This document shows, one piece after another, positions 16,564-59,678 of a stretch of 64,000 bases of DNA. The position numbers and the translations under genes were made by a program. Below the pieces are notes generated by a model. The model did no database searches and was not told the DNA's origin. It saw only the letters and a list, made by a program, of their open reading frames with translations. Each line of letters opens with the position of its first letter. The stretch's first letter is position 1. The DNA is taken from positions 4,774,001 through 4,838,000 of the forward strand of contig CM075988.1 of the NCBI GenBank assembly GCA_038087875.1, given 5' to 3'. Source of the DNA: Malacoraja senta (Eukaryota).

Positions 16564-17802
16564 TATGTCCAAAGTGAGGATACGGTCTGCGGGGAAGCCG
16601 GCTACCGAAGACCGCGGTAATGCGGGTAGCGGGCGACTGTCTGTGTCACCGACCTTGTCGCTGGTGGTGGAGCCGGCGACAGCAGACCTGGTGCCCGAGG
16701 AAAGCACCGTGGCGGTCCCGCAGGGGCGCAAGGCCACACGAAAATCCGCAAGGCCCGTAGACTCAGATGAGTCGGGCCAGGAGGGATCCCCTCCTTCGTT
16801 GGGAAGCGTCCACTGGTGACTTACCCACATGGAGCACCTAATGGAGAGGTGGCTCGAGAGTGATCTGCTCCGTAGGAGGGAGCAGTATAAACACGGTTCT
16901 CCGCAGCAGCCCGCGCCAGCGACTTCATACATGGGTCTGCAACGTGTCTCCCTCGCTGGAGGGGGGAGTACACCGGGTCAGTTTTTGACTGACTCCGAGT
17001 TTGGAGGCACAGTGGGTGAGCATTCCAGGGGCACGGGTCTGAAGTGCCACTATTGGCATCCAGATTTGCCATATCCTCACCATTAGGAGCACCCCTGGAT
17101 GAAGACCTGGCCAACAATATCAATTATTTGGCCTCTCACCAACTAAAAGAATTAACTATGGAAGAAACCACCAACAGGTACCCCTCTCCTGCAAACTGTG
17201 CCTCCCTCAATGTGCCGGCCGTGAACCACTCCATCTGGGGTCACATTGGAGCGGGTGTCAGAGCCCAGGAAGTAAAGCTCCAGAAAGTCCTGAAGTTACT
17301 GGCCTCTGGCATAACGGCCTTTGCAAGATCAGTAGATGGGGAACTACTGACCGATACTCAACAAGACGCAGTGGCATTACTCTGTAATGCTCACTTTGAA
17401 ATAAATTGCCTGCGCAAGAACGCAATCCGGCCGGCGCTAAACCCCAAGTTTGCTGTGCTGTGCAAGGCCAGCAACGTCCAGCCGGCCAATTATCTATTTG
17501 GGGAAGATCTGCCAAAGCAGGTCCGGGAGCTGGACGATGAGGCGAAGACCATCCGCCTCATGAGTAGAGCCCAAACCACACCCAGGGGCTCATCATACCG
17601 GACTCACCCCTACGCACCCTACAGTACCAGGCGACACCAGCCTAGGGGCACCGGAACTGGTGGAAGACCCAAACTGGAGCCATCGAGGTCTTTTTTAGGG
17701 GTGGGCCCCAGCCGACCCACGGCAAGGATGTGCAGGGGCCACCCACCACCAGCTCTATTTCCGAAGCCTCACGAACGGAAGTCAGCACCACACCGCCAGT
17801 AA
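16564..17802 (+). pseudogene. DIRS ORF1 (gag-like), disrupted
   Basis: ATG at ~16564, in-frame stop at 16817-16819, frameshift near 17040. C-terminal part P.NC.SL.VP.VN.SIW..YLFGEDL is typical of DIRS gag. Confidence 0.75.
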
Positions 17803-19716
17803 CAACTGAGGTAGGTCTACCTAGTTCCTTGTGGAACACCTTACACATGCCCCACGCACCGGTTGGGGGAAGGTTGCAACATTTCTTGAATGAATGGTGT
17901 TGGGTCACAGCGGATCTGTTTATACTGCACAGTATACGAGGGTTCAAAATTGAGTTCATTATTGACTCATTACCACCCACACAACATTCACCTAACCGCA
18001 CAAATGTGTTTTCACACCAGGAGAGTTTGGATATACAAGCTGAAATCCAAATTATATCCAATAAAGAGGTCATTGAGAGGTCGCATCCAGAACCTCACCA
18101 ATTTGTATCCAATATTTTCACCAAGCAGAAAAAGGATGAAGGAGTTCGTATTATCCTAGACTTGACTGAACTCAACTCTTTTGTGCAGTATAAACATTTC
18201 AAAATGGATAATTTTGGCACTGCAATCCAAATGATTTCTGAAGGTGGCTATATGGCATGCATCGACCTAAAAGATGCATACTACACGGTACCTATTCACA
18301 GGGAGCACAGGAGATATTTGAAATTTAACTGGATGGGTCAATTATGGCAGTTCAAAGCATTGCCCAATGGGCTGACTTCAGCTCCCAGACTATTTACCAA
18401 ACTACTGAAACCCATTCTGGGGCTATTACGAGCTCAGAGCCACATGGTCATGGCATATTTGGATGACATCCTCATTTTCGGGGTCACCGAGCTATCGGCA
18501 GAATCATCTGTCTCAACCACCAAACTCATGTTTGAAAGATTGGGCTTTCTCATTCATCCAGTTAAGTCCATGTTGACACCTACCAGGGTTATGGATTACC
18601 TGGGGTTTACAATTAACTCAATCCACATGTCCGTGACTCTGCCTAGGGGCAAACAATTAGAGTTAACCAAAGCTTGTAATGACCTTATTGTGAAACAAAA
18701 GCCATCAATTAGACAATCAGCAAGTGTAATTGGCAAACTAGTGGCAGCATTTCCAGCAGTGCGTTACGGACCTTTGCACTATCAAAATTTACAACGTGCA
18801 AAGGAACAGGCACTCAGATCCCACGCTGGCCAATACGGTAGACCAATGCGATTGCCAGCCGAGGCCATTGCTGAACTACAATGGTGGATGACGAATATAC
18901 GTCATAGCTCCAGGGATATTTTGCTGGATACTCCATCGGTCGTCTTACAAAGCGATGCAAGCGGCCTAGGATGGGGAGCAACTGATACCATCTCCAGCTG
19001 TGGTGGGAGGTGGAATGAGCAGGAGTCCTTAATTCTTCAGCAATGAGGTATTAACTACTTAGAGTTGTTGGGGGATCACTATGGGCTGAAGGCTTATTGC
19101 AGCACTATGCAACATGTGCATGTTCAGCTCGAGATTGACAACACTACCACGGTGGCATATATTAATCACATGGGTGGTGTTGAGTCTGTGTCTTGTGATA
19201 GATTGGCAAATCTTATTTGGCACTGGTGTATGGCGATGGACATTTCGGTCTCAGCTGTCTACCTACCAGGTAGATACAACACGGTGGCGGACAACAGATC
19301 ATGCATTTTCAACGACAACACAGAATGGATGCTGAATCGTGCAGTATTTAACGATATAATCACCCGGTATGGCATCCCGGATATTGATCTGTTCGCATCC
19401 AGATTAAATCACCAATTACCCAAATATGTGTCCTGGGAGCCAGACCCAGGGGCAGTGGCAGTAGATGCGTTTTCGCTACACTGGGGAGGATTTTCCCCCA
19501 TTTTGCCTCATCGGCCGATGCTTGGCAAAAATCAAGCAAGACAATGCCACTGGCATTTTGGTAGTGCCTGACTGGCCTACACAGTCTTGGTTTCCACAAG
19601 TCCTGGGAATGATTACACAGCCTTTCCCCATGAGCAGGGAACTACTCATTCACCCAGTAACGGGGAGCAACCATCCACTTCATGACCGAATCAATTTATT
19701 GGTTTGCAGATTCTGA
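17730..19716 (+). pseudogene. DIRS pol: reverse transcriptase, RNase H and methyltransferase-like domain
   Basis: VGGRL, IDLKDAYY, LPNGLTSAPRLFTK, YLDD, SDASGLGWG, DNTTTVAYINHMGG, IDLFASRLN, PPF..PDWPTQSW. One in-frame TGA at 19044-19046 and a frameshift near 19490. Confidence 0.92.
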
Positions 19717-19754
19717 GGAGACCATAACTGGGGCTCGGACTGTCTAAACGAACT

Positions 19755-20685
19755 GTGGATGTGATAACAGCGGCCTGGAGGGACAGTGCACAAAAACAGT
19801 ACGTCTCTCACATCAAGAAGTGGGAGATGTTCTGTTCTGTCTCAAATATCTCGTATGATACAGCACGCATCACGGATGTCCTGGAGTTTCTATCTGCCCT
19901 GTACTATGACCAAAAACTGAGCTACAGTGCCATCAATAGTGCCAGAAGTGCACTATCCTCCTATTTAATGCTGGGGTCAGGGCACCAGACGTTAGGGACG
20001 CACCCTTTAATAACTAGGTTCATGAAGGGCATTTTTAATTCCATACCACCAAGTCCCCGGTACACGTACATTTGGGACGTGAGCGTGGTGCTTACACTGC
20101 TTCGCCAGGGGCACCAGCTCCCTCCCTACCCTTATCTAAGCTCACCCTTAAGGTGGTCATGCTGATGGCGCTGGTAACTGCGCAACGAGTCCAGACGTTG
20201 CACAAGCTGCACCTTGACTTCATGACCACCAATGTAAATTTAATAACCTTTTTCATAGAGGGCTTGATCAAACAGAGCAGGCCAGGGGTGCCAGGGCTCG
20301 AGCTAGAGTTCCTGGCATACCCCGAGGATCCACGGTTGTGTGTCATATCACATATACACCATTACATAGAGTCACCAAGGGCCTCAGAGGCTCTGAGCTA
20401 TCGGTCCTAATCAGTTATAAAAAGCCTCACCACAAGGTATCAGCACAAACCATTTCCAGATGGTTAAAGGAGGTACTGACGAGTGCAGGAGTGAACATTG
20501 ACACTTTAAAATCTCACTCCACCAGGGCTGCATCTACGTCGGCAGCGAGAGCAATGGACGTTCCCCTCGATAACATCCTAGCGGCTGCAGGATGGGCCAA
20601 TGAACGGATGTTCCACCGGTTTTACAACAAACCTATTGCCGGACCAGGGGTGTTTGCACGTACCATTTTAAATTCTGTTTTGTAG
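19755..20685 (+). pseudogene. DIRS tyrosine recombinase, frameshifted
   Basis: SYSAINSARSALS, AQRVQTL, HSTRAASTS..AAGW..F.RFY motifs spread over three frames. Confidence 0.9.
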
Positions 20686-20866
20686 TTTCCCCCCAGGATG
20701 GGAGGGGTTACTATTATTATTTTTTCTTTTTCATATTAAAGCATCAGTTTTATTACCTAACTAAAGTTATGCCTGAACGCTTTACCTTTTCACTCGTCCA
20801 TGGTCAATCCATTCAGTGTGTGACGCCTGGACTCGTATACAGCGTGAAGTCACAGAGCTTTAAAAT

Positions 20867-20978
20867 CTTCACGTAGTCACTCACGTGACTCCGAAGTAAA
20901 ATAGTAAGATTAAACGAGAACTTACCAGTTTGAAGATTGATCTTGATTTTAAGAGGAGTTACGTTGAGCGATTACGTG
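20867..20978 (+). repeat. DIRS internal complementary region (ICR)
   Basis: CTTCACGTAGTCAC..CCGAAGTAAAAT is the reverse complement of the left end; TAGTAAGAT..ATTACGTG is the reverse complement of the right end. Confidence 0.9.
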
Positions 20979-21331
20979 CCCACCGCTCCCTCCCTCATAT
21001 TACCAAGGTCATCTGGTAGTTTCTAGTTCTCAATCTTACTACCTTCAGGTCATTTCTCTTTTCTGTGATTTCACACCGCTGCTTTGAAGAATGACGTCCA
21101 TGCGGACTGACGTCCCTTCTTCACGTAATCGCTCATCGTAACTCTTCATAAAATCAAGATCAAACTTCAAACTGGTAAGTTCTCATTGAATCTTACTATT
21201 AAACACTGCACTCTCCAAATAAGTACTGAACTACATAGACTATTAATAAACTATTATTGTTATTATTGTACTATTATTGTTTGTTGTTTTTTACGTGTAC
21301 ATATGGGTGTGTATATACACATGTGTATATA

Positions 21332-22406
21332 TCTATTATAATACTAAAACTCTGTCTTGTTTGGGGCTGTGTGTGTGTCAATCTGGTTAATTTTCCTATT
21401 TTCTTCCAAATGCTGGGCCACAGCCTTCCCATTTTCACACATTACACTCACATTTTTCCCATCGAGGCGATAAACATCTTCGCATCGCATTCCCACCTAT
21501 ATTTCCAAACTTTTTAATCGTTTAAAGTTTTTAAAACAGCCTAAAAACTCACCCATTTTGGAAAAAAAAAACGTGACGTCACAATGCACTTGCAAGGCAG
21601 GACGGGACACTCCGTGGGGGGGGAGGGGCACTCCACCGCTCACGGTGAACGAGGAGTGGCGGTGGCTGCTCGCCGCCCGGTGCCCTGCGGCCGGCCAGTG
21701 CCTCGTGGGGAGGCTGCTGCCGCGGGCCGAACCCAGCGGTTGGGCCAGGGCTGGAGCCGAGGCTGGAGCTGGAGTGAGGGCCGAGTCCGGGGCTTGGGAT
21801 GGGGCCGTGACCTGGGCCGAGAAAGAAGCCGCCGGTGGAACCAAGGATGAGCCTGAGTCCGGGGTCAGGGAAGGTGAAGTCGAAACCTGCACTGGAACCC
21901 GGGCAGCGGCCGAGCTGACGGTTGGAGGCTGCTGCTGGAACCAAGGACAAGCCTGGGTCTACAGCCAGGGCTGGGTCGAGTACGAGAACCAGGCCGAGTT
22001 CCAGGCCCTGACGCTGCTCTACGACCTGGGTAGGTCCTGGGGCAGGGAATGGGGTGAGGGGAGGAGGATGAGGGAAATGAGGAGGAGGGAGATGGGGTAG
22101 GGTCGTTATCCCCCTCCCTCTCTGCCCCTCTCCCTCTCTACCCCCTTCCCCTCCCTCTACCCTCCCTCTCTACTCCCCTCCCTTTCCCTCTCGACCCGCT
22201 CCCCATCCCTCTCTACCCTCTCCGGCTCCCTCTCTACCCCCTCCTCCCTCCTCCTCCCTCTCTACCCCCTCCCTCTCTGCCGCCCCTCCCTCTCTATTGA
22301 AACCTATGGTGGAATATTGCGTTCGTAGACCAGCCCTCCACTGTGACGCCGCGCGCACCCCCCCCCCCCCCCCCCACCCGGTTCCACTTGGTTCCACTTG
22401 GTCGAG
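21332..22406 (+). mobile_element. Non-autonomous Helitron-like element H1 with captured gene fragment(s)
   Basis: A|TCTATTATAATACTAAAACTCTGTCTTG start; CACTTGGTCGAG|T end (CTAG variant); inserted in a (TA)n tract. Shares CTAAAACTCTG and the exact 17-mer TGGTGGAATATTGCGTT (22307-22323) with H2. The 3' hairpin is degenerate. Confidence 0.75.
21951..22029 (+). pseudogene. SAC3D1: Captured 3' end of an exon resembling SAC3D1 (SAC3/GANP domain), with donor GTAGGT
   Basis: AWVYSQGWVEYENQAEFQALTLLYDL(G): strongly GC3-biased codons, followed by G|GTAGGT. Resembles the recalled vertebrate SAC3D1 motif Y..G....Q..FQ.L.LLY.LG. Confidence 0.55.
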
Positions 22407-22539
22407 TATATATATATATATGTATATGTGTGTGTGTGTGTGTGTATATAAATGCTAATATGTACATATACAATATACAGTATATATGTATATGTGGGTA
22501 TGTGTATATATAGACACACTGATTTTTTTTTCCTTTTTA

Positions 22540-33439: not shown

Positions 33440-36400
33440 AATAATAATTTTTTTTTTTAAATAATTTTTATTAGAAGCAAACATATTATAAAGTATAGTA
33501 ACATATTATAGTAAAAAAAACTTTTCATATACATCAATCATACATTATTAAAATTGTCAATTGTCGATTAATTCTGCTTCTAGTGTTTAAAAAAATATAT
33601 ATAGATAGAAAAAGATAGAGAGAAAGAAAAAAGAATTACAAATATCAAAAAATAGAGGTGGAATGAATTACTTATAATACGTCATTGGAGATAAGTTCGT
33701 AGGTTATGAAGTATAATTTTACATCTAATCCTGAGTTCAAGCTTCAGTTGGGTGTTCGTGCTGGGCCAATCTATCCCTTCAGATAGTTAATGAATGGAGC
33801 CCATATTTTAACAAAAAGTTCTTGTTTGTCCATCAAGACAAGTCTAATTCTTTCTAGATGTAGGGTCTCCGACATTTCCACAATCCACATTTTAATTGTG
33901 GGGGTTATAGGGCCTTTCCAAAATTTTAATATTAATTTTTCCCAGTTATTATACTGTAGTCAAGGAAGTTTCTTTGGCTTGTTGTGAGTGTTAAACTTTG
34001 TTCTGATATCACAAGTATTATTAATTTTGAGTCTGGATCCAATTTAGTATTAACAACTTCAGAAATTATTTCAAAAATATCAGTCCAGAAATTTTTAATT
34101 TTTGTTCAATTTGCAAAAGTATGTGTTAAATTGGCCTCTAGGTGCAGACATTTATCACAGATAGGAGAAATATGTGGGAAGATTATATTTAGTTTTATTT
34201 TGGAGTAATGTAATCTGTGTAAGACTTTAAATTGTATTAAAGTATGTCTAGCATTTAACGAACATTGATGTATATGTTGTAAACTTTCGTCCCAAATATC
34301 TTTCGTTATAGAGTGACCTAACTCATTTTCCCATGTGTGTCTATATAGTTCCATCGGTGGTACCTCGTTGTTTAAGAGGGTGTTATAAATATAAGCTATT
34401 AATTTTTCAGTGTCAGGATTCTTATTCAAACATTCATCAAGAATTTCTGGTTCCCTAGTCCTATAAACTTGTGTATTAGATTTAACATAATCTCTAATTT
34501 GTAGATATCTGAAGAAATAATTTGAGTGCAGTCCATGATTCTGTTGTAACTCTTGAAATGAAAGAAAAATGCCTTTCCTATAAAGATGTCCAATCTTTTT
34601 AATTCCATAATTTTTCCATTGTGTGAAACCTTTATCCAATATAGATGGCTTGAATAAAGGATTATTTACAATGGGAAGACATAGTGGTATATTATTCAGT
34701 TTTAAAGCTTTTTTTTAATTGTTTCCAAATTCGTATTCCACTATGTATTATAGGGCTTTCCTTATAGGTTTTTTTATGCAGTTTTGTGGGAGCAAATATA
34801 ATCGAACCAATTTCAAAAGGTAAACAGTCTTCCTTTTCCATCCTTAACCAAGCTGGTTGTTGATCTATTTCTTCCAGCCAGAAATTCATGTTTTTAATAT
34901 GGACTGCCCAAAATAAAATAAGAAATTTGGCAAGGCCAAACCTCCGTCGCTCTTTGACTTACATAAATGTTTTTTACTTATTCTATGATTCTTATAATTC
35001 CAAATAAAGCTTGTAACAATGGAATCGACTTTTTTGAAAACGTTTTTTGGGATATATATCGGAATTAATTGAAATAGGTACAGTAGTTGCGGTAAGAAGA
35101 TCATTTTTATAGCATTAATTCTACCAAGCATTGCAATGGGAAGTGTTTTCCAGTACTGAATATTCTTGTGTAATTTATTAAGTAAGGGTGGAAAATTTTG
35201 TTTAAGGTATATGTCTTAGTTACGTAGATTCCTAAATATTTAAGTTTATCTTTAACTATTTTAAATGGGGATTGTTGTAATGTGTTTAAATTGAGTTTTG
35301 TTATTGGCATGATTTCACTTTTATTCCAGTTAATTCTATATCCTGAGAACTGACCAATTTGAGTTATTAGATTTAATAGATTTGGAATACTAGTTTCTAA
35401 CTTTGTAATATATATTAGTACATCATCTGCATATAAAGACATTTTATTCCTTGTATCTCTAGTGTTGTACCCGTGTATTCCTGGATGGGCTCTAACGCTT
35501 TCTGCTAATGGTTCAATTGCAAGAGCAAATAATAGTGGGGATAGTGAACATCCTTGTCTACAACCTCTAGAAAGATTAAATTTAGCTGATAACATTTGGT
35601 TTGTTAATATTCTAGCTGTTGGGTTAGAGTATAACAATTTAACCCATGTACAGTACTTCTCTCCCAGTTTTAATTTTTCCATTACCGAAAATAAATATGA
35701 CCATTCTACCTGGTCAAATGCTTTTTCAGCATCTAACGAAGTAATTGCTAGATCTGCATTAGGAATTCTATTTGTATATATAATATTGAATAGTCTTCTC
35801 AAATTATAAAATGAGTAACGTTTTGGAATAAAACCTGTTTGGTCGGGGTGTATTAATTTGTTAATCACTAAGCTCAATCTATGAGAAAGGATTTTGGTTA
35901 ATATTTTCTGATCAGTATTTAAGAGAGCTATTGCTCTATATGAACCTGGGTCTTCAGGATCCTTATCCGTTTTTGGTATAAGTATGACGGTAGATTCATT
36001 TAGAGTTTCTGGGAGTTTCTGTTGAGTGTAAGCGTATTTGTATAGTGTCTGTAGGCGTGGAGAAATCAGATCGTAAATTTTTAAATAAAATTCAGAGCAT
36101 AGACCATCAGGACCAGCGGCCTTTCCATTTTTTAAAGATCTAATTGACTCTTCAATGTCTTTTACCATAATTTCAGCATCCAGTGATTCTCTCTCTTTCT
36201 GATCTAAACCCGTAAGATTACATTTCTGTAGAAATGTTTCCATTCCTGCTGATTGTTCTGTCGTTTTAGATGAGTACAGTTTTTGATAGTATTGTAAAAA
36301 TCTATCATTAATATCTTTAGGCAGTGTTAATGTTTCTCCCTTGTCTGATCTAATTTTGTAAATTGCTTTTCCCCCGTCCAGTTTACGAAGTTGACGCGCC

Positions 36401-36824
36401 ATTGTTTTTGTGGTTTATCACCAAATTCAAAGTTTAATTGTTTTGTATGTTGATATAGTTTTATAACTTGGTCTGAGTATATCTTGTTTAACTTATATTT
36501 CAGTACTGCAATTTTATTGTGTTTTACCATAGATGGTGCTATTGCATTTTCTATGTCTAATTGCCTTATTTCCATTTCCAATGTCTGTTGTTTGGCCCTA
36601 TTCTCTTTGTTAAGAAATGATTGGGAAGAGATTAATACTCCTCGCACAAATACTTTAAATGTTTCCCAAAGAAGGGAGGCAGAGATTTCAGGGCTATCAT
36701 TAGCCTCAAAAAACATATTAATCTGTTTTACGAGGTATTCATTACATAGCTTTTCTTTTAAGATTTGGGGGTTAAGTCTCCATTGTGACTGTGTCTCGGT
36801 CATTCCATTTAGTTTAATCATAAA
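33440..36824 (-). mobile_element. 5'-truncated L1 with 16-bp TSD
   Basis: ORF2 pieces 36821-34106 (GKAAGPDG, DAEKAFD, GCRQGCSLSPLLF, YADD, C..C). TSD TGGGGTGGAGAATAAT at 33424-33439 and 36825-36840. Confidence 0.92.
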
Positions 36825-39261
36825 TGGGGTGGAGAATAATTAAATGAAAGAATTTGTGTTTTTGTTATATTCAGTTTATACCCTGAGTAGTATCCATATG
36901 TTTCAAGTAGGTTCATTAGATTTGGGAGACATATATCTGGTCGTTCAAGAAAAATAATGACATCATCAACGAAAAGACCAATGATATGGACCAATACGGA
37001 CCAATCACCGAAAAGACCAAAAGAGAATGCAGAAAATCAGAACGGAAGTACAAATCTGATAAGCTTCAAATTTCCTTTGAACTCCTGAAAAACAATCTTC
37101 ACAATTACCAGGAAGCGGTAAAATCTGCAAGAACTAAATACTTTTCCACCCTTATCTCCAAATCCGCTCATAATTCCAAGGTCCTTTTTAGCACCATCAC
37201 CTCCATTTGTCCTGCCCCCAGCACCAGCTTAACTGGGTCCCCTGCTAAGTGTGAGGAATTTACTACATTTTTCACCAGCAAGGTAAAAAACATAAGAACA
37301 AATATTTCCCCTCCCATCCGTGACCTGGCTGTCTCATTGGTCTGCTCTTCAAAATTAGAGCAACCCGTTACTCTACCCTCCCTTGTAAAACTGATCACCA
37401 CCATGAAACCTACTACCTGCCCCCTCGACACTGTCCCCTCTGCCCTCCTAAAGGATGTCATTACAACAGCCGGTCCCAGCATCTTCGCCATCTTCAACAC
37501 CTCTCTGGCCACTGGCACTGTACCTACCTGCTTCAAGCATGCGGTGGTCCAGCCACTCCTGAAAAAAACTAACCTCAACCCCACCTTGACAAGCAACTAC
37601 AGACCCATTGCCTTTCCTCTCAAAAGCCCTTGAAAAGATAATTTTAAGTCAACTTATGCCTTACCTTCACCAAAACACTATCTTCGAAACTTGAAGGTAC
37701 ATAATGACCTACTGCTCACCGTTGACTCCAGCGACTGTGCAATCCTGCTCCTTCTTGACCTCAGCGCAGCATTTGATACTGTCCACCACACCATCCTAAT
37801 TGACCGTCTCCGGTATGGGGTTGGTATTGATGGCACTGCCCTGAGCTGGTTCATCTCCTACCTCAAAGGTAGGAGTATCTCGACTAACATAGGCAACTCT
37901 TTCTCCTCCCCAGCTAATCTCTGCTGTGGGGTTCCACAAGGTTCCATCCTTGGCCCCATTCTCTGCTCCCTGCATATGCTCCCCTTAGGCCATGTCATTG
38001 AAAGGCACGGCATTTCCTTCCATTGCTACGCAGACGATACACAACTCTATCTCCCCCTGAAGCCCAAAAAACAATCAAATCTACTTAACCTTACCCAGTG
38101 CTTCGAGGATATAAAGTTGTGGATGGCCCAGAACTTCCTCCAACTAAACGAGAGTAAGTCTGAGGTCATCCTTCTCGGCCCCTCGGACTCAATCAAAATT
38201 ATAGCAGGCAGGCTTTGAAGCCTTACCCCACCACTCAAACCTCACGTCAAAAACCTTGGCGTGATATTTGACTCAGCACTGAAATTTGACAAACAAGTCA
38301 ATGCCGTGGTAAAAGCTAGCTTCTTTCAGCTTCAGACGATAGCTAAAATAAAACAATTCCTCCACTTTGATGACCTCGAAAAGATCATTCACACATTTAT
38401 CTCCTCCCGCCTAGATTACTGCAACTCCCTTTACACTGGCATCAGCCAATCTTCCCTGTCCCGCCTGCAACTGGTCCAAAACGCCGCAGCGAGACTCCTG
38501 ATGGGCACCCGAAAAAGGGACCACATCACCCCGTTCCTGGCCTCTCTCCACTGGCTCCCTGTGCGGTTCCGTATACATTTCAAGGTCCTCCTCTATGTCT
38601 ACAAAGCCCTCAATGGGCTTGCCCCCACCTACATTAAAAGTCTTCTCACCCACCACTCCACCTCCAGGTCCCTCAGGTCGTCTGACTTGGGGTTGCTGAA
38701 TATCCCGCGGTCTAGGCATAAGCTCAGGGGCGACCCCGCCTTTACGGTTGCAGCTCCTAGACTGTGGAACAGCATCCCCCTTGCCATCAGAACTGCCCCC
38801 TCCATCGACTCCTTTAAGTCAAGACTAAAAACTTATCTATACTCCCAAGCCTTTAAAACAATTTTTTTTTTTTTTTTTAATTTTTTATTTATTAGAAGTA
38901 CATTACATTACAACCACATACATTAGTACTCGTCACTTATGTCTTCTTACAATTAATGTACTCCATTTGTTTTTTACACTAGTAAAAGGAAAGGATAAGA
39001 TTGAAAGAAAGAAGAAAGTGAAGGAAAAAGTGAGAGTGTAGAAAATGTGACAACAAAAAAGGACGAAGACCCTATAAGAACAAAATTGAAAACAAAAGAA
39101 AAAGAGTTAAGAAATAGACCCTAGAAAAGAAGGAGAAAGAGAAAGACGAAAAAGAGAGAAACAAATATTTTTTATGAGCATTACGCAAATGGGACATACC
39201 AACTCTTCAACTATCATCCCCCATTACCTGACCTCAATTTTTTTTAAGGTACCTTTGCACC

Positions 39262-42200
39262 CTATATTTGTAATAATTCTATAAATGCAGACCACATCAG
39301 GTGGAAGTGATCTGGTTTACCTGCTAGGAGGAGTCTTATCTCTTCTAGGTGTAATGTTTCGAACATATTTGAAATCCACATGTTTATAGATGGTATTGGA
39401 GCCTTCTTCCAAAATTTTAGGATTAGCTTTTTTCCAGTTATTAACCCATAGTCTATTAGTTTCTTTTGAAACACATTTAGTTCTGGACCATCTTCCGTTA
39501 TTCCGAAGATAATCCATTCTGCTTTGGGTATCAGTTTTATTTTAAATAATTTTGTAAAGATTTTGAAAATTTCATTCCAAAATTTTTGAATTTTTGTACA
39601 GAAAACAAATGAGTGCGCTATAGTAGCTTCTTGGGATTGACATTTATCACAAATAGATGATACATTTGGGAAAATGTTATGAATTTTAGTTTTGGAATAA
39701 TATAATCTATGTAAAATTTTAAATTGTATTAAAGTGTGTCTTACATTAATCGAAAATTTATGCACGTTTAATAAGTGTTCATTCCAACTTTCCTTTGAAA
39801 TTTTAATAGCTAACTCTTGTTCCCAGTCTCTTCTGATACCCTCCGTAGATGGTATTTCTACATTTAAGATAATATTAAACAAATATGATATTAAGTTTGC
39901 TGATTCAGCTTTTATCTGCATTGCCTCATCCAATACATCTGCTGGGTTATTATAATGATCTTTTGTATATTTTTTCAAATAGTCGCATATTCGAAAATAT
40001 TTTAAATATTGATTATTTCCGAGTTTATATTTTATTTGTAATTGTTGAAATGAAAGTAATTTTCCAGTTTCATACAAGTCACCGAACGTTTTAATTCCTA
40101 GTCTATCCCAATGTGTAAAAGCTTTATCTATAATAGAGGGATTGAACGAAGGGTTATTAACTATGGGTAATAAAAGTGATACATTTCTTAATTTTAAATT
40201 TTGTTTTATTTGTTTCCAAATTCGGATTGTGCTATGAATAATTGGGTTCTTATTATAATTTATATTATTCAGTTTCATTGGAGAGAGGAGGATCGCTCCA
40301 ATGTTTCCAGAGGAGCAATCCTCTTTCTCCATTACAATCCAGTCCACTTGCTGGGCGGAGTTAACCATCAGTTGAATCATATTTTTAATATTTACTGACC
40401 AATAATAATACATAAAATTAGGTAGTGCTAAACCCCCTAATACTTTAGGTTTATTCAGATGAGTTTTTTGTATTCTATGTGATTTATAGTCCCATATAAA
40501 ATTAGTGATATCTGAGTCGAGTTTTTTAAAAAACTTCTTTGGTAAGTATATTGGAATCGATTGAAATAGGTATAAAATTTGTGGTAGAAAGATCATTTTT
40601 ATTGCATTTATTCGGCCTATTAAAGACATCGGGAGCGTTTTCCAGAATTTAATTAGTGTGTTTAATTTATTAAGTAGGGGATCAAAATTTGCCTTAAACA
40701 TACCTTGATATGTTCTAGTAATTTCGATTCCCAAGTATTTAAATTTTTCTGTAGCTATTTTAAAAGGGAATTTTAAAAGATGTGTTGAATCTTTCGGTTT
40801 TATTGACATAATTTCACTTTTATTCCAATTTATTCTATATCCAGAAAAAGATCCAAAGTCTTCAATTAAATTTAATATATTTGGTATAGTGATTTGAGGT
40901 TTTGTAATGTACAGTAATATATCATCCGCGTATAAAGATATTTTATTATATGAATCTTTAGTGTTATATCCATGGATATCAAGGTGTATTCTAATTTTTT
41001 CTGCTAGCGGTTCAATAATGAGAGCAAACAGCTGTGGTGATAATGAGCATCCTTGTCTATTTCCCCTTGATAGTTGCAATTTCGAGGATAATATGTTATT
41101 AGTTAGTATTCTAGCTGTAGGTTTATTATATAGTAATTTGATCCATAGAATAAAATTCTCTCCCAGTTGGAATTTTTGTAATACTTTATCCATATAATTC
41201 CATTCTACTTGGTCAAATGCTTTTTCAGCATCCAGCGAAATAATTGATAATTTTTGATCTTCAGATTTGTGTGAGTGCATTATGTTGAGTAAATGTCTCA
41301 TATTGTTAGATGAGTATCTCTTAGGGATAAACCCCGTCTGATCTGGGTTTATTAATTTACTAATGTATTTACTTAATCTTCTAGCTAATGTTTTCGCTAA
41401 TATTTTTTGATCTGTGTTTAACAATGCTATAGCTCTATATGAACCCGGTTCTTCTAAATCTTTGTCTTTCTTAAGTATTAGTGTAATCGTTGATTCCGCT
41501 AATGTATCAGGTAGTATTTGTTTTTTAAAAGCATATTGGTACATTTTTTGTAATCGTGGTATTATTTTATCATAAAAGCTTTTATAAAATTCATTAGTAA
41601 ATCCATCAGGACCTGGTGTTTTTCCATTCTTTAGTGAGTTTATTGTATCTTCTAATTCCTTAATTGAAATTTGTGCACCCAATTCCTCTTGTTCCTTCAG
41701 CTCTAACTTTGGAAGATTACAATTATCCAAAAACTTTGTGATATTATTGGAATCAATTGTCGTTTTAGATGTATACAAATTCTCATAAAATTGCGCAAAT
41801 CTTTTATTAATATCCTTCGGTGTTGTTAATAATTCCCCTTTATCTGATTTAATCTTTGGGATAGTATGTTCCTTTTCTCGTTTTTTTAGCTGGCGAGCCA
41901 AAAGTTTATGCGGTTTATCCCCAAATTCAAAGTGCTCTTGTTTTGTAATTTGAAAAAGTCTTATAAGTTTGGCAGATAATAATTTATTTAATTTAAATTT
42001 CAAAATTATTATTTGTATTATGTTTATCTATTGATGGATCTTTAGCATTATCTATATCTATTTGTCTAATAAGTTCTTCTAACTGTCTTTGTGCATTCTT
42101 ATACTTTTTATTTTGAAAAGCTTGATATGAAATTATAATACCCCTAATGTATGCTTTAAAAGATTCCCATAATACAGTAGACGATATATCTGGAGTATCA

Positions 42201-43038
42201 TTTATTTGAAAAAAGGCATCCATTTGTTCTTTTAAATATATACTCGCTTGTGGATCTTTTAGAATTTGAGAATTAAATCTCCAAAACGATTTATTCTTAA
42301 ACATTCCTTCCAGTTTTAAAAATAAAGTTAGTGGAGAATGGTCTGAAATCGAATTTGTGTGGTATGTTGGGTTAAATGTTTGAGGGATTAATTTTGTATC
42401 CAGCAGGAAGTAATCTATACGTGAGTATGTCTTATGTACCATTGAATAAAACGAGTATTCCCTGCCAGTTGGATTAACAATTCTCCAAACATCTGCTATA
42501 TTAGTATTGTTTATATAAGTATTGAGAAGTTCCCCGGTTTTTGATTTCATATTCCCTCTCTGTTTTTGGCTTGATTTATCTAAGTACGGATCTAAAACAC
42601 AGTTAAAGGCTCCTCCTATTATAACATTTTGAAAGTTAAACTCTGCAATTATGTTGAAAATTTTATTGAAAAAGTGGGGATTGTCAAAGTTAGGGGCATA
42701 TATATTTACCAAGGTAAGTGGAGTATCATGAATTTCTCCATTAACTATTAAGTATCTCCCTTCTATATCTGTTATGATATTCTTTGCTTTAAATGGTATA
42801 CCTTTTCTTATAATAATTTCGAAGTGAATGAAGAATGGTATGTTTGACCTATCCATTTCGCCCTCAACCTAACTTGATCCTGAGATTTTAAGTGTGTTTC
42901 TTGTAAGAAGATAATGTCAGAGTTGTACAGTTTCAGCTGAGCTAGTATCTTACCCCTTTTAATAGGTTCGTTAATACCTCTTATATTCCAACTACAAAAT
43001 GAGATTCTTCCTAGGTTCTTTTGTTTAGTGTCATGCAT
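39262..43038 (-). pseudogene. L1 ORF2 (APE endonuclease plus RT), two frameshifts
   Basis: SWNIRG, FLQETH, NIYAPN, YSRIDYF, SDH, GKTPGPDG, YADD and CDKC motifs in ORFs 43038-42808, 42856-41993 and 42003-39262. Confidence 0.93.
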
Positions 43039-46589: not shown

Positions 46590-47123
46590 ATTTGTATCAT
46601 TTTTTTAAGCATTATCTGCAGTGTGGAGGGTTCTACTAATATTGTCCTGTGTTTGACGCCCCCTAATAAATCCAGTTTGGTCTTCATTAATCGGATCTGG
46701 TACAAAAGTCTCGAGTCTTTTGCAAATGATTGAGGTAAATAGTTTGTAGTCTACATTTAAAATTGAGATTGGCCTGAAATGTTTACATTCCTCTTTGTCT
46801 TTGCCTTCCTTAGGTAAAATGGTAATAATTGCTTCCTTCCATGATGGGGAAGCCCTGCCCTCTTTAAGGGTCCAGTTAAAGCAAGACAGGAGCAGAGGTG
46901 TTAGCTCTTTCTTAAAGGCCTTGCACCATTCTTGTGGAAACCCATCGCTGCCTGGTGATTTACTAGCCTTAAGTCTACTGATTGCAGCTTCCAGCTCCTT
47001 CACAGTAAATTGTGACGTAATGGTATTATTTTTTATCTCACCAATGGATGGCAGGTCGAGTGAGTTAAGAAAACTTCTCATTGTCCTTTCGTCAGCTGAT
47101 GGTGGTTTGGAATAGAGTTTCTT

Positions 47124-47270
47124 CTTTTTCTTCTTCTTCTTGTGTATGGCGTGCACAGCCTAAAGTTGTAGGACAACTTGTTCTATTTGATCTTACTTGA
47201 TTGTGCACGCCAGGTTGATTGCATTCGTCGAAACAGGGCGGACCACTTGAAGGTTGCAATCTCCCACCCC
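47124..47270 (-). mobile_element. Short retroposed element with (GAA)n tail and 14-bp TSD
   Basis: TSD GAATAGAGTTTCTT at 47110-47123 and 47271-47284; internal inverted repeat TGGCGTGCACA / TGTGCACGCCA. Confidence 0.8.
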
Positions 47271-53390: not shown

Positions 53391-54522
53391 TAAGGGAGAG
53401 GTGTGGGGCATGTTTTTGACACAGAGAGTGGTGGGATCCTGGAACCCGCTGCCAGAGGTGCTGGTGGAGGAAGCTACGATCGTGGTGTTGAAGAGATTTT
53501 AGGATTGGTGTCTGGAAATGCAGAAAATGGAGGGAAGTGGATCACGTGCATGCAGAGCAAATTAGTTCAACTTAGCATCATGATTGGCATGGATATTACC
53601 TGATGAAGGGCCTGTTCCTATGCTGTACAGGATTAAGCTCTACTAGACTAAGTGCAGACCCATTGGGTCTGCTCACCCAATGCAAGATTCCACCACTCAC
53701 CCATTCTCCCACCACAACCCATCCCCCCAACGCAATATTCCACCACTCACACATAGCCCCTAACTGCACAGGCGCGGCTCATTTCTCCTCATCCCCAGCA
53801 CTACCTTCCCGTCCTCTTCACCCTCCCTCTACTTTCCCCTCTCCTCATCCCCTCCAACAATCCTTCCCTCACCTCTCCCTCCCTCTCCTTTCCCCTACCC
53901 TCCCTCCCTCCATAACTCCTCTCCCTCCCTACCCCCTCCTATCCCTCTAACCCCCACTCCTCACCTCCTCCTATCCCCCCAACCATCCGTCCTGACCATC
54001 CCCACTGCCCTCCTCTCCCTCCATTCCCCACTCCCTACCTCCCCCACTCCCCCCTCCTCTCTCTCTATTCCCCCTCTTCCTCACTTCCCCCACTTTCCCC
54101 TCTCTCCCTCACTACCGCCTCCTCTCCCTCAATCCCCCTCATTCCCCCTCTTCACCTCCCCAGCATCTTTGCCCACTCCTCCTTCCCTCCCTCACCTCTC
54201 CCTCCCTCTCCTTTCCCCTACCCTCAGTCACTCCCTCCCTCTCTCTATAAAAATCAGCATCTGCAGTTACTTCCTCCACAGGTCACTCATTGTTACCTGT
54301 GGTTTAGATCCCGTTGACTTGACGATTGGACCAGTTTGTATCGTTTGTGTGTGTGTGTGAGTTGCTCAAACTACGCACAAACTGCTCGGCCACCCTGCAA
54401 CCCGACTCTCCCTCCCTCCCTCTGCCCACTCCGGCCTGCCCGGCCGCCTACTGCTGCCGCTCGGCCCTTCCCCGCCCTGCCCACCCGCCTACCTGCCTGC
54501 CTGCTCGCTGCTGCCGGTGGGG

Positions 54523-54603
54523 ATGGAGTCGGTGTTCGTCACGGTGGGCATCACGAGTTTCGATGAGCTGATGGAGAAGATCTCCTCCGAGAGGGCCGTG
54601 AGG
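54523..54603 (+). pseudogene. ALG13: Copy of ALG13 (UDP-GlcNAc transferase subunit) first coding exon, inside Helitron H2
   Basis: ATG..81 nt encodes MESVFVTVGITSFDELMEKISSERAVR, then phase-0 donor GTGAGT. Matches the ALG13 N-terminal VFVTVGTTSFD motif; no exon 2 recognised downstream in the window. Confidence 0.85.
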
Positions 54604-55158
54604 GTGAGTTAATGCAGCGGCTGCGATGGCGGAGGAGACAGACGGTCACAGCCATTCACCCGGGGGGGACGGGTAGACGGGACCGCCATTGCCGTAGAGG
54701 GTGGGAGGGGGAGAGTGGTGAGTGAGGGAGAGAGAGATAGGACCAGGGCCTCCACTGAACCCCCCTCTCCCCCCCTCACCGCGGCCGCCGCCGGTGGTGG
54801 GGGAGACGGTAGACAAGTTATTGTGAGGAGGGGAGAGAGGAGTTTGTGAGTGAGGCAGGAGAGGCCACTGTGCAGGAAGGGGCATCGCCGTCCCGGTCAT
54901 GGCCTTGACTGACAGGAGAGGAGACCAATCTGCGTGGCGCTGACTGACAGGAGAAGAGACTAATCTGTGCATGCACGGTTTTTAAGATTTTTAAACTTTA
55001 ATATCTTCTAAATATACCATAGATCGGAACAAAACTTGTTGCACTTGCAGTACAGGAGAATGGTGAGTAAGGTGGCGAAAAATCATAGCACTATCGTGTA
55101 CCATCTTTGCACAAATAGAAAAACCACGCAAACCGGAAGTGCACAAGATCAGAGTTTT

Positions 55159-55284
<126 letters not shown>

Positions 55285-57769: not shown

Positions 57770-58082
57770 TTGGACTTTAGACTTTACAAATACAGCGTGG
57801 AAACAGGCCTTTCAGCCCACCGAGTCCATGCCGACCAGCGATCACCATACACCTGCACTATCCTATACACTAGGGTCAATTTACAATTTTACCAAAGCCA
57901 ACTTTCCTACAAACCTGTACGTCTTTGGCGTGTGGGAGGAAACCGGAGCACCCGGAAAAATCCCACGCAGGTCGCAGGGAGAACGTACAAACTCCGTACA
58001 GACAGCACCTGTAGTCAGGATTGAACCCAGGTCTCTGGCGCTGTAAGGTGGCAACTCTTCCGCTGCGCCACCGTGCCGCCCC
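57770..58082 (-). mobile_element. HE1-like SINE
   Basis: Standard tail and head in reverse. Confidence 0.85.
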
Positions 58083-58099
58083 CTTTATATTCTCAGCTG

Positions 58100-59678
58100 T
58101 TCCTTAAAGGCCGATAAATCCCCAGGGCCAGATAGGCTGCATCCCAGAGTACTTAAGGAAGTAGCCCCAGAAATAGTGGATGCATTAGTGATAATTTTTC
58201 AGAACTCTTTAGATTCTGGAGTAGTTCCTGAGGATTGGAGGGTAGCTAATGTAACCCCACTTTTTAAAAAGGGAGGGAGAGAGAAAACGGGGAATTACAG
58301 ACCAGTTAGTCTAACATCAGTAGTGGGGAAACTGCTAGAGTCAGTTATTAAAGATGGGATAGCAGCACATTTGGAAAGTGGTGAAATCATTGGACAAAGT
58401 CAGCATGGATTTACGAAAGGTAAATCATGTCTGACGAATCTTATAGAATTTTTCGAGGATGTAACTAGTAGAGTGGATAAGGGAGAACCAGTGGATGTGT
58501 TATATCTGGACTTTCAGAAGGCATTCGACAAGGTCCCACATAAGAGATTAGTATACAAACTTAAAGCACACGGTATTGGGGGTTCAGTATTGATGTGGAT
58601 AGAGAACTGGCTGGCAGACAGGAAGCAAAGAGTAGGAGTAAACGGGTCCTTTTCAGAATGGCAGGCAGTGACTAGTGGGGTACCGCAACGCTCAGTGCTG
58701 GGACCCCAGCTATTTACAATATATATTAGTGATCTGGATGAGGGAAATTAATGCAACATCTCCAAGTTTGCGGATGACACAAAGCTGGGGGGCAGTGTTA
58801 GCTGTGAGGAGGATGCTAGGAGGCTGCAAGGTGACTTGGATAGGTTGGGTGAGTGGGCAAATGCATGGCAGATGCAGTATAATGTGGATAAATGTGAGAT
58901 CCACTTTGGTGGCACAAACAGGAAAGTAGACTATTATCTGAATGGTGGCCGATTAGGAAAAGGGGAGATGCAACGAGATCTGGGTGTCATGGTACACCAG
59001 TCATTGAAAGTAGGCATGCAGGTGCAGCAGGCAGTGAAGAAAGCGAATGGTATGTTAGCATTCATAGCAAAAGGATTTGAGTATAAGAGCAGGGAGGTTC
59101 TACTGCAGTTGTACAGGGTCTTGGTGAGGCCACACCTGGAGTATTGCGTACAGTTTTGGTCACCAAATCTGAGGAAATACATTCTTGCCATAGAGGGAGT
59201 ACAGAGAAGGTTCACCAGACTGATTCCTGGGATGGCAGGACTTTCATATGAAGAAAGACTGGATAGACTCGGCTTGAACTCGCTAGAATTTAGAAGATTG
59301 AGGGGGATCTTATAGAAACTTACAAGATTCTTAAGGGGATGGACAGGCTAGATGCAGGAAGATTGTTCCCGATGATGTGGAAGTCCAGAACAAGGGGACA
59401 CAGTTTAAGGATAAGTTTTAGGACCGAGATGAGAAAATTATTTTTTACACAGAGAGTGGTGAATCTGTGGAATTCTCTGCCACAGAAGGTAGTTGAGGCC
59501 AGTTCATTGGCTATATTTAAGAGGGAGTTAGATGTGGCCCTTGTGGCTAAAGGGATCAGGGGGTATGGAGAGAAGGCAGGTACAGGATACTGAGTTGGAT
59601 GATCAGCCATGATCATATTGAATGGCCCAATGGCCTACTTCTGCACCTATTTTCTATGTTTCTATGTCTGTCTATGTT
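58100..59678 (+). mobile_element. Young 5'-truncated CR1 LINE (whole RT plus 3' end)
   Basis: [48 protein letters not shown]; a few frameshifts; (TTCTATG) tail. Confidence 0.95.

Follow-up and report, generated by a model that had tools for sequence, protein, structure and literature searches.

We analysed a 64-kb stretch of the genome of the skate Malacoraja senta (GenBank assembly GCA_038087875.1, contig CM075988.1, forward-strand positions 4,774,001 to 4,838,000; hereafter the window, in whose own numbering positions are given), and in particular the DNA at 21332-22406, which an earlier reading of the sequence (the original prediction) had described as a Helitron-like transposon copy carrying a captured SAC3D1-like exon end. 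Direct reading bore out the proposed borders. The host A at 21331 is followed by the Helitron TC at 21332-21333, the word CTAAAACTCTG lies a few bases inside the 5' end, and the 3' end CACTTGGTCGAG (GTCGAG) at 22395-22406 is followed by a host T at 22407. A TA/TG microsatellite flanks the copy on both sides, in agreement with the (TA)n tract described before. The interior is CpG-rich, as had also been noticed: at 21560-22030 the GC content is 67.5% and the observed/expected CpG ratio 0.70, and the GC peak inside the copy reaches 0.755. The 23 codons at 21960-22028, YSQGWVEYENQAEFQALTLLYDL, all have G or C as last base (23/23), and the CpG-rich core ends in ...YENQAEFQALTLLYDL-G followed by GTAGGT (G/GTAGGT at 22029-22035). 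Within the window itself, the terminal words do not occur beyond chance (two matches to CTAAAACTCTG versus 1.48 expected, and one match to CACTTGGTCGAG versus 0.16 expected), so the significance of these observations rests on the rest of the genome. The features of the copy, together with other coordinates used below, are collected in Table 1.

A family of non-autonomous Helitrons

Our genome-wide searches covered the element's own 1.94-Gb assembly. With the 1075-base window element as query, 4592 first-look candidates were obtained, and among the 40 that were scored, the longer matches were 74-87% identical over element positions 6-965; the copy count proposed as a check on the original prediction was thus high. 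Because the element is repeated across the genome, its CpG-rich core, its peptide and its GTAGGT are features of a family and not of this locus. We compared the 5' ends of 27 related loci, anchored on the element body, and found the A/TC junction in 21, each consisting of a host A and then TCTATAT(T/A)ACTAAAACTCT (15 with the strict pattern, five with an extra TC, and the window copy); of the remaining six, three are variant or lie head-to-tail behind another element, and three have no detectable 5' end. The word TAAAACTCT at the 5' terminus is common to the window copy, the window's other Helitron, the related locus L032 and the autonomous element L076.

The 3' ends are equally uniform across the family, with the consensus ...TGGTGGAATATTGCGTTCGGGGACCAGCCCTCCCCTGTGACGCCG(C)n...GGGACCCAACGGGTCCCACTTGGTCTAG and then T; this T is present after every one of the 16 3' ends that could be read and after 22 of 25 pattern matches, the three exceptions being at the mismatch limit. 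A hairpin, GGGACCCAACGGGTCCC or CAGACCCAACGGGTCTG, lies 11 nucleotides before the 3' end and folds at -6.7 to -8.9 kcal/mol in L020, in L076 and in the other copy of the window, and the 17-base family 3' word GGTCCCACTTGGTCTAG, which comprises hairpin and CTAG, has 2160 exact occurrences in the genome, compared with none for the reversed control. A 5' TC, a 3' CTAG and a hairpin near the 3' end are the hallmarks of canonical Helitrons as given for Helraiser and Helibat1 in PMC4778049. The DNA at 21332-22406 is a decayed member of this abundant non-autonomous canonical Helitron family, and its assignment to Helitrons in the original prediction is upheld by the A/TC junctions, the T after the 3' ends, the consensus of hairpin and CTAG and the partners with a RepHel frame (Rep and helicase domains) described below. 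Its divergence from the majority of 26 aligned copies is 6.3%, the median of the copies being 8.2%. Head-to-tail arrays, in which the 5' end of a copy comes directly after the CTAG of another, were seen at L002, L013, L016, L055 and L057, and at the joints of these arrays the 5' TC is missing or altered.

The SAC3D1 cargo

The plus-strand frame of the core aligns by BLASTP with skate SAC3D1 proteins (P0001, 23/32 identical, E 7e-12; P0002, 19/23 identical, E 2e-9), that is, at 72-83% identity with the alignment ending at ...LLYDL(G), and a weaker collinear match pairs LVGRLLPRAEP of the window frame with SAC3D1 residues 66-76. When three SAC3D1 proteins were compared with the window by tblastn, the best match of each fell at 21933-22031, as the check suggested with the original prediction had anticipated; the only other rows had E values of 0.22 and 0.42, and no other SAC3D1 exon was found in the window with these proteins. 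A search of the genome for the SAC3_GANP domain (PF03399) returned three matches, all inside copies of this family, and nothing beyond them. These three copies are 88-91% identical to the window element over its positions 628-771, and between its positions 596 and 628 they are longer by about 270 bases, which encode the SAC3 core ...PWHVVHGFMTDRLRSVRQDNVSQRLGGCPATAILEHNLRFLLCGQLWLG.... The domain score of L032 is 36.9 bits versus a Pfam cut-off of 27, and that of L031 is 17.5 bits, from an alignment that spans profile positions 95-177 and includes the YKNQAEFQALALLY segment and ...EYKNQAEFQALALLYNLG. A 78-residue stretch of L031 is 76% identical to a SAC3D1-like protein of Rhinoraja longicauda (E 4.8e-30), 74% to SAC3D1 of Amblyraja radiata and 60% to that of Pristis pectinata. 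Thus, the identity of the cargo, which had been suggested in the original prediction, was confirmed by the alignments and by a sister copy above the domain cut-off.

The fullest copies (L032 and L048) reach back to about SAC3D1 residue 13, and no Met1 or start codon was found in them. In the window copy, the open frame at 21474-22100 runs for 208 codons from stop to stop with no in-frame ATG and is, judged by these comparisons, a relic of SAC3D1 exon 1 with the domain core deleted. The length of this frame and its uniform G or C at third codon positions would also suit a native single-copy SAC3D1 exon belonging to a gene at this locus; such an exon is hardly conceivable in view of the thousands of copies, the Helitron ends that bound the fragment and the deleted SAC3 core, and it was refuted by the copy number and by the window tblastn, which left no further SAC3D1 exon. 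A reading of the minus strand, with a polypyrimidine tract, a CAG/G acceptor at 22029 and an open minus frame, was dropped once the plus-strand frame matched SAC3D1.

The probable exon/intron junction

With Amblyraja SAC3D1 as genome query, 3589 candidates were obtained and 95 scored, and all 97 matches (97/97) lie within residues 64-286; no genome match extends beyond residue 286, and the C-terminal 160 residues likewise gave none. At residue 286, the three SAC3D1 proteins have G, D and G, as fits a codon split after its first base. GT follows the exon end in 22 of the 26 aligned copies, and the 19-base junction word CTCTACGACCTGGGTAGGT occurs exactly 316 times in the genome, with zero occurrences for the control. 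Because these junction words are found genome-wide, the SAC3D1 capture is ancestral to the whole family and not an event of the window copy. The sequence after the exon end in family copies is GTAGGTCCTGGGGCAGGG, and the bases past the donor (GTAGGTCCTGGGGCAGGGAATGGG...) do not encode the next SAC3D1 residues (SDQALHH...). Since the homology stops at one point and is followed by GT and then by non-coding bases, a spliced RNA copy is excluded as the source of the cargo, and DNA copied across the exon-intron border is the simplest reading. The bases after the GT are likely SAC3D1 intron 1. The earlier proposal of a captured exon/intron junction, and with it of capture at the DNA level, is therefore supported by the common end of the matches and the retained GT, the intron origin of the following bases being likely.

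An unspliced RNA would leave the same trace, since a retrocopy of SAC3D1 pre-mRNA later taken up by a Helitron would likewise retain the donor and the start of the intron. We consider this origin very improbable: no poly(A), further exon or retrotransposon-type junction lies on either side of the fragment, and copying of DNA better fits the sister capture of an ALG13-like gene described below, which spans about 335 bp upstream of the parent ATG.

Two backbones with one cargo

The 30 best SAC3D1-core loci have a backbone that we call type B. The 5' part of the window's other Helitron lies just upstream of the core in 28 of the 30, the terminal hairpin and CTAG lie downstream in 20, and the junction word is found at up to three mismatches in 27; these counts bear on the question, raised with the original prediction, of whether the copies are flanked by Helitron termini. 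The window copy belongs to type A: its 5' backbone is a different one that contains a (TG)n tract, its exon is shortened, and its minisatellite is inverted (CT-rich). The motif GTGACGTCACAATGCAC, counted at up to two mismatches, is present in 26/30 type A loci and 0/30 type B loci, and the autonomous L076 has a 16/17 match to it about 290 bp in from its 5' end. Because GTGACGTCACAATGCAC recurs inside L076, the palindrome TGACGTCA within it is likely Helitron backbone and not a SAC3D1 promoter, on the strength of this one autonomous locus.

The two types differ over their entire 5' part and in their internal deletions, and together with the distribution of GTGACGTCACAATGCAC this would be expected if the SAC3D1 piece had entered types A and B independently or had passed between them by recombination. 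We regard either course as improbable, because the downstream breakpoint and the post-donor bases are common to both types (88-91% over positions 628-771), as are upstream parts of the exon (VKEWRR and HLVxRVVPRAEP), and a single capture followed by rearrangement is simpler.

Autonomous partners

The Helitron Rep domain (PF14214, Helitron_like_N) has 104 matches in the genome, many of them in long open frames (up to 1766 aa). Three 10-kb stretches, L076, L077 and L078, hold uninterrupted RepHel frames of 1727, 1766 and 1669 codons. The frame L076:3306-8486 (1727 aa, no stop) matches Helitron_like_N at 193 bits and the PIF1 helicase at 231 bits, and no endonuclease family is among its seven Pfam families, so that L076 belongs with the canonical Helitrons and not with the Helentrons. 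The Helentron/Helitron2 class was also rejected on the ends, which read as TC...CTAG and not as inverted repeats. On the 3' side of L076, ...CAGACCCAACGGGTCTGCACTTGGTCTAG lies about 740 bp past the frame and has the hairpin and the ACTTGGTCTAG end that match the non-autonomous copies; its 5' start ...TTTTAAAACTCTCT includes TAAAACTCT, which is also present in both window elements.

In L076 and L077, two successive hairpin-CTAG ends come after the frame with a CT-rich minisatellite between them, and the sequence past the first end is identical in the two elements. These doubled ends suggest a transduced 3' extension, perhaps point to recent activity of the two autonomous Helitrons, and would fit frequent bypass of the end in this lineage.

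A second capture in the window

The window's other Helitron lies on the minus strand at about 53643-55179; its 5' part is of type B, and its hairpin and CTAG/T are intact. Its cargo runs antisense to the element: on the plus strand an ATG at 54523 opens MESVFVTVGITSFDELMEKISSERAVR (exon 54523-54603), which is followed by GTGAGT. The parent locus lies near 5.53 Mb on contig C7; it is a gene of several exons, with matches to Glyco_tran_28_C (PF04101), and MESVFVTVGTTSFDELVEEISSERAVR lies about 3 kb upstream of the matching exons. We call this gene ALG13-like, a putative name. The other Helitron and the parent locus are 74% identical in DNA over about 660 bp, from about 335 bp before the ATG to about 210 bp into the intron. 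The cargo is multi-copy, with 573 candidates, of which 40 were scored at 72-86%. The exon protein alone, in a 40-aa version, had no match in the protein search and none in Pfam, and the element is accordingly linked to the gene through the parent locus.

This element documents a further DNA-level capture of a gene start, independent of the first and including 5' flank and intron, in keeping with the two Helitron copies with different captured exon ends of the original prediction. The two share a 5' word related to CTAAAACTCTG and a minisatellite of the GA/CT type, each holds the 5' end of one captured gene together with the donor, and the 3' hairpin and CTAG of the other Helitron are the same as those of the SAC3D1 family. 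The other Helitron differs from the window copy in its type B backbone, in its different, antisense gene, and in that its parent gene was found in the assembly. By analogy, this capture with its parent locus supports a DNA-level reading for SAC3D1.

Surroundings of the element

The repeat-dense window contains, upstream of the Helitron, an element with the Pfam domains RVT_1 (17646-19043) and Phage_int_SAM_4 plus Phage_integrase (19728-20682), which by these domains is a tyrosine-recombinase (DIRS-like) retroelement and not a Rex1 LINE. Of its other scored copies, 38/39 end at window positions 21199-21204, and the Helitron therefore lies about 130 bp past the retroelement end, in simple sequence; the earlier placement of the insertion inside a Rex1 3' untranslated region did not hold. 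Other copies of the retroelement offered no paralogous empty site, because that family ends before the insertion. The retroelement itself (17020-21200) is very abundant (4784 candidates), its copies reach 95% identity, and it ends in an inverted-repeat structure of about 300 bp at 20900-21200.

We scanned 28 further long frames of the window with Pfam and found reverse transcriptase in five, a retroelement endonuclease domain in one and no family in 22. With no host-gene domain among them, there is no obvious downstream exon for the splice donor of the window copy. One of the reverse-transcriptase elements also has an endonuclease domain (LINE-like; 920-codon frame at 39262-42024).

Table 1. 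Coordinates of the window copy and of other features of the analysis
Feature	Position	Strand	Evidence
Insertion point and 5' terminus (host A, Helitron TC)	21331..21333	+	same A/TC junction in 21/27 related loci
5' backbone of type A non-autonomous Helitron, with CTAAAACTCTG (21344-21354)	21332..21572	+	78-89% identity to 5' parts of other loci
(TG)n microsatellite in type A 5' backbone	21367-21379	+	
GTGACGTCACAATGCAC, including palindrome TGACGTCA; likely Helitron backbone	21573..21589	+	26/30 type A versus 0/30 type B loci
SAC3D1 exon-1 remnant, one open frame, internally deleted (SAC3 core removed)	21590..22029	+	BLASTP; deletion relative to L032
Best-kept exon part (CWNQGQAWVYSQGWVEYENQAEFQALTLLYDL and first Gly base)	21933-22029	+	BLASTP to skate SAC3D1 proteins
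GTAGGT splice donor and GA-rich stretch; likely start of SAC3D1 intron 1, running into family minisatellite	22030..22105	+	
CT-rich minisatellite, unit about 15 bp, about 12 copies	22110..22296	+	Tandem Repeats Finder
Decayed 3' backbone: TGGTGGAATATTGCGTT (22307-22323), poly-C, duplicated GGTTCCACTT, CGAG for CTAG, hairpin lost	22297..22406	+	aligned with intact copies
Host T past the 3' end	22407..22407	+	T also after 16/16 readable family 3' ends
Reverse-transcriptase frame	35107-36411	-	
Reverse-transcriptase frame	37634-38215	+	
Reverse-transcriptase frame	39262-42865	-	
Reverse-transcriptase frame	46605-47156	-	
Reverse-transcriptase frame	58047-58748	+	
Autonomous Helitron L076	G000:C4719:107500-117499		

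Discussion

Helitrons are the main DNA transposons known to acquire and spread pieces of host genes, and the vertebrate precedent considered here is that of vespertilionid bats. Here, we put a probability of about 0.85 on the reading that the DNA at 21332-22406 is a decayed non-autonomous Helitron copy with a deleted remnant of SAC3D1 exon 1 and its GT donor, and that this fragment had probably been taken from chromosomal DNA in a single event by the time the family multiplied. In mechanistic terms, a Helitron would have copied host DNA beside or into itself in the course of rolling-circle transposition, either bypassing one of its ends or switching template; a 'read-through' model of capture is discussed in PMC4778049. 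One such DNA-level capture of SAC3D1 exon 1 with its donor would then have been followed by amplification of the family, the copies being likely moved in trans by the RepHel proteins of autonomous Helitrons with common terminal sequences.

Several observations weigh against this reading. The window copy itself has neither a CTRR 3' terminus nor a sub-terminal hairpin: CTAG has become CGAG, the 10-base unit GGTTCCACTT is doubled, and the last 40 nucleotides fold at 0 kcal/mol, compared with -6.7 to -8.9 at intact ends. We attribute this to decay, since copies with intact ends are homologous to the window copy throughout. The TA-repeat flanks make the absence of a target-site duplication unreadable at this site. 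Pfam found zero families in the window frames, in which the SAC3 core is deleted, and a large protein search with the window peptide (21828-22028) returned no match, so that its link to SAC3D1 rests on the pairwise alignments and the sister copies. Searches of the assembly with three queries (the C-terminal 160 aa, the N-terminal 76 aa and the whole protein) did not find the parent SAC3D1 gene, which the assembly may lack or the first look may have missed; we therefore treat the capture breakpoints as provisional and an intron origin of the bases past the GT as likely. The GA-rich stretch after the GT could also be the Helitron's own minisatellite, as GA/CT minisatellites are present in type B copies and beside autonomous elements as well. 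Finally, apart from short motifs, the 5' part of type A did not match any of the three autonomous loci by BLAST, and movement in trans is therefore deduced from the shared ends.

The window copy is predicted to be immobile and non-coding because the SAC3 core, an in-frame ATG, the 3' hairpin and the CTAG are all missing, and any effect that it has today would come down to offering a CpG-rich stretch and a plus-strand splice donor. At the level of the family, the cores keep CpG-island criteria at 6-12% divergence, and in the cores of the 26 aligned copies, CpG bases are changed at 16.6% versus 6.9% for other G/C bases, a 2.4-fold and thus modest excess. It is conceivable that the CpG-rich module of exon 1 and donor acts as a dispersed alternative first exon or promoter that gives rise to chimeric host transcripts. 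The retained GT and the CpG-island character of the interior, the small excess of changes at CpG bases, the TGACGTCA motif upstream of the exon remnant and the precedent of HelibatN3 and NUBPL in bats (PMC4778049) all speak for such a role. We nevertheless judge it unlikely, because the window copy has no in-frame ATG, no host-gene domain was found among the 28 long window frames, and retention of the GT in copies that are just 6-12% diverged needs no selection. None of the sequencing runs recorded as RNA contained the stretch, and the short contigs of four runs, probably of DNA, match many copies of the family and say nothing on transcription or splicing.

Capture of the 5' exon and donor of a gene by a Helitron is of a known kind, and the closest case is that of HelibatN3, which in Myotis bats took up the promoter of NUBPL along with six of its codons and a splice donor, and which gives rise to chimeric transcripts (PMC4778049). 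As described there, HelibatN3 resembles the SAC3D1 family in being non-autonomous, in its 5'-TC and 3'-CTAG and in its hairpin about 11 nucleotides from the 3' end, and in both cases the 5' end of a host gene through its first splice donor is present in hundreds or thousands of copies. The skate family differs in its cartilaginous-fish host, in its gene, and in having taken nearly the whole of a long first exon (residues about 13-286 in the fullest copies) instead of six codons. HelibatN3 also took a promoter, whereas in the SAC3D1 family the earliest convincing residue is about 13, no Met1 was found, and the upstream motif is likely backbone. Furthermore, the frames of the autonomous partners are still open in the skate; the bat element, by contrast, is a reconstruction of an ancient one (PMC4778049). 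Non-autonomous Helitrons of maize carry gene fragments as well (PMC2575219 and PMC4528327). The skate family is like these in its likely DNA-level capture of exon and intron into non-autonomous elements that were then amplified, and unlike them in having one 5' gene end per element, since the maize elements often chain fragments of several genes. Our literature search found no paper on a Helitron with SAC3D1, and Helitrons and skates were mentioned together incidentally only.

We speculate, at a strength that leaves the idea doubtful, that a still potentially active Helitron lineage of a cartilaginous fish, with many open RepHel frames, has repeatedly taken CpG-rich 5' ends of genes (SAC3D1 and the ALG13-like gene) and has spread hundreds to thousands of modules of first exon and donor that now start or re-head host transcripts, independently of but in parallel to the events in bats. 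For annotation, the finding is a warning that SAC3D1-like exon matches across this genome are transposon cargo and not genes, and that false exon calls may arise from them. With its hundreds to thousands of copies of a near-whole SAC3D1 first exon and donor, and with another captured gene start and open transposase frames besides, the skate genome provides material for the study of how Helitrons capture the 5' ends of genes. The scale of the family, the open transposase frames and the presence of two captures in one window indicate that this lineage merits genome-wide study, and they allow a test of whether dispersed modules of first exon and donor rewire transcription in an early-branching vertebrate.

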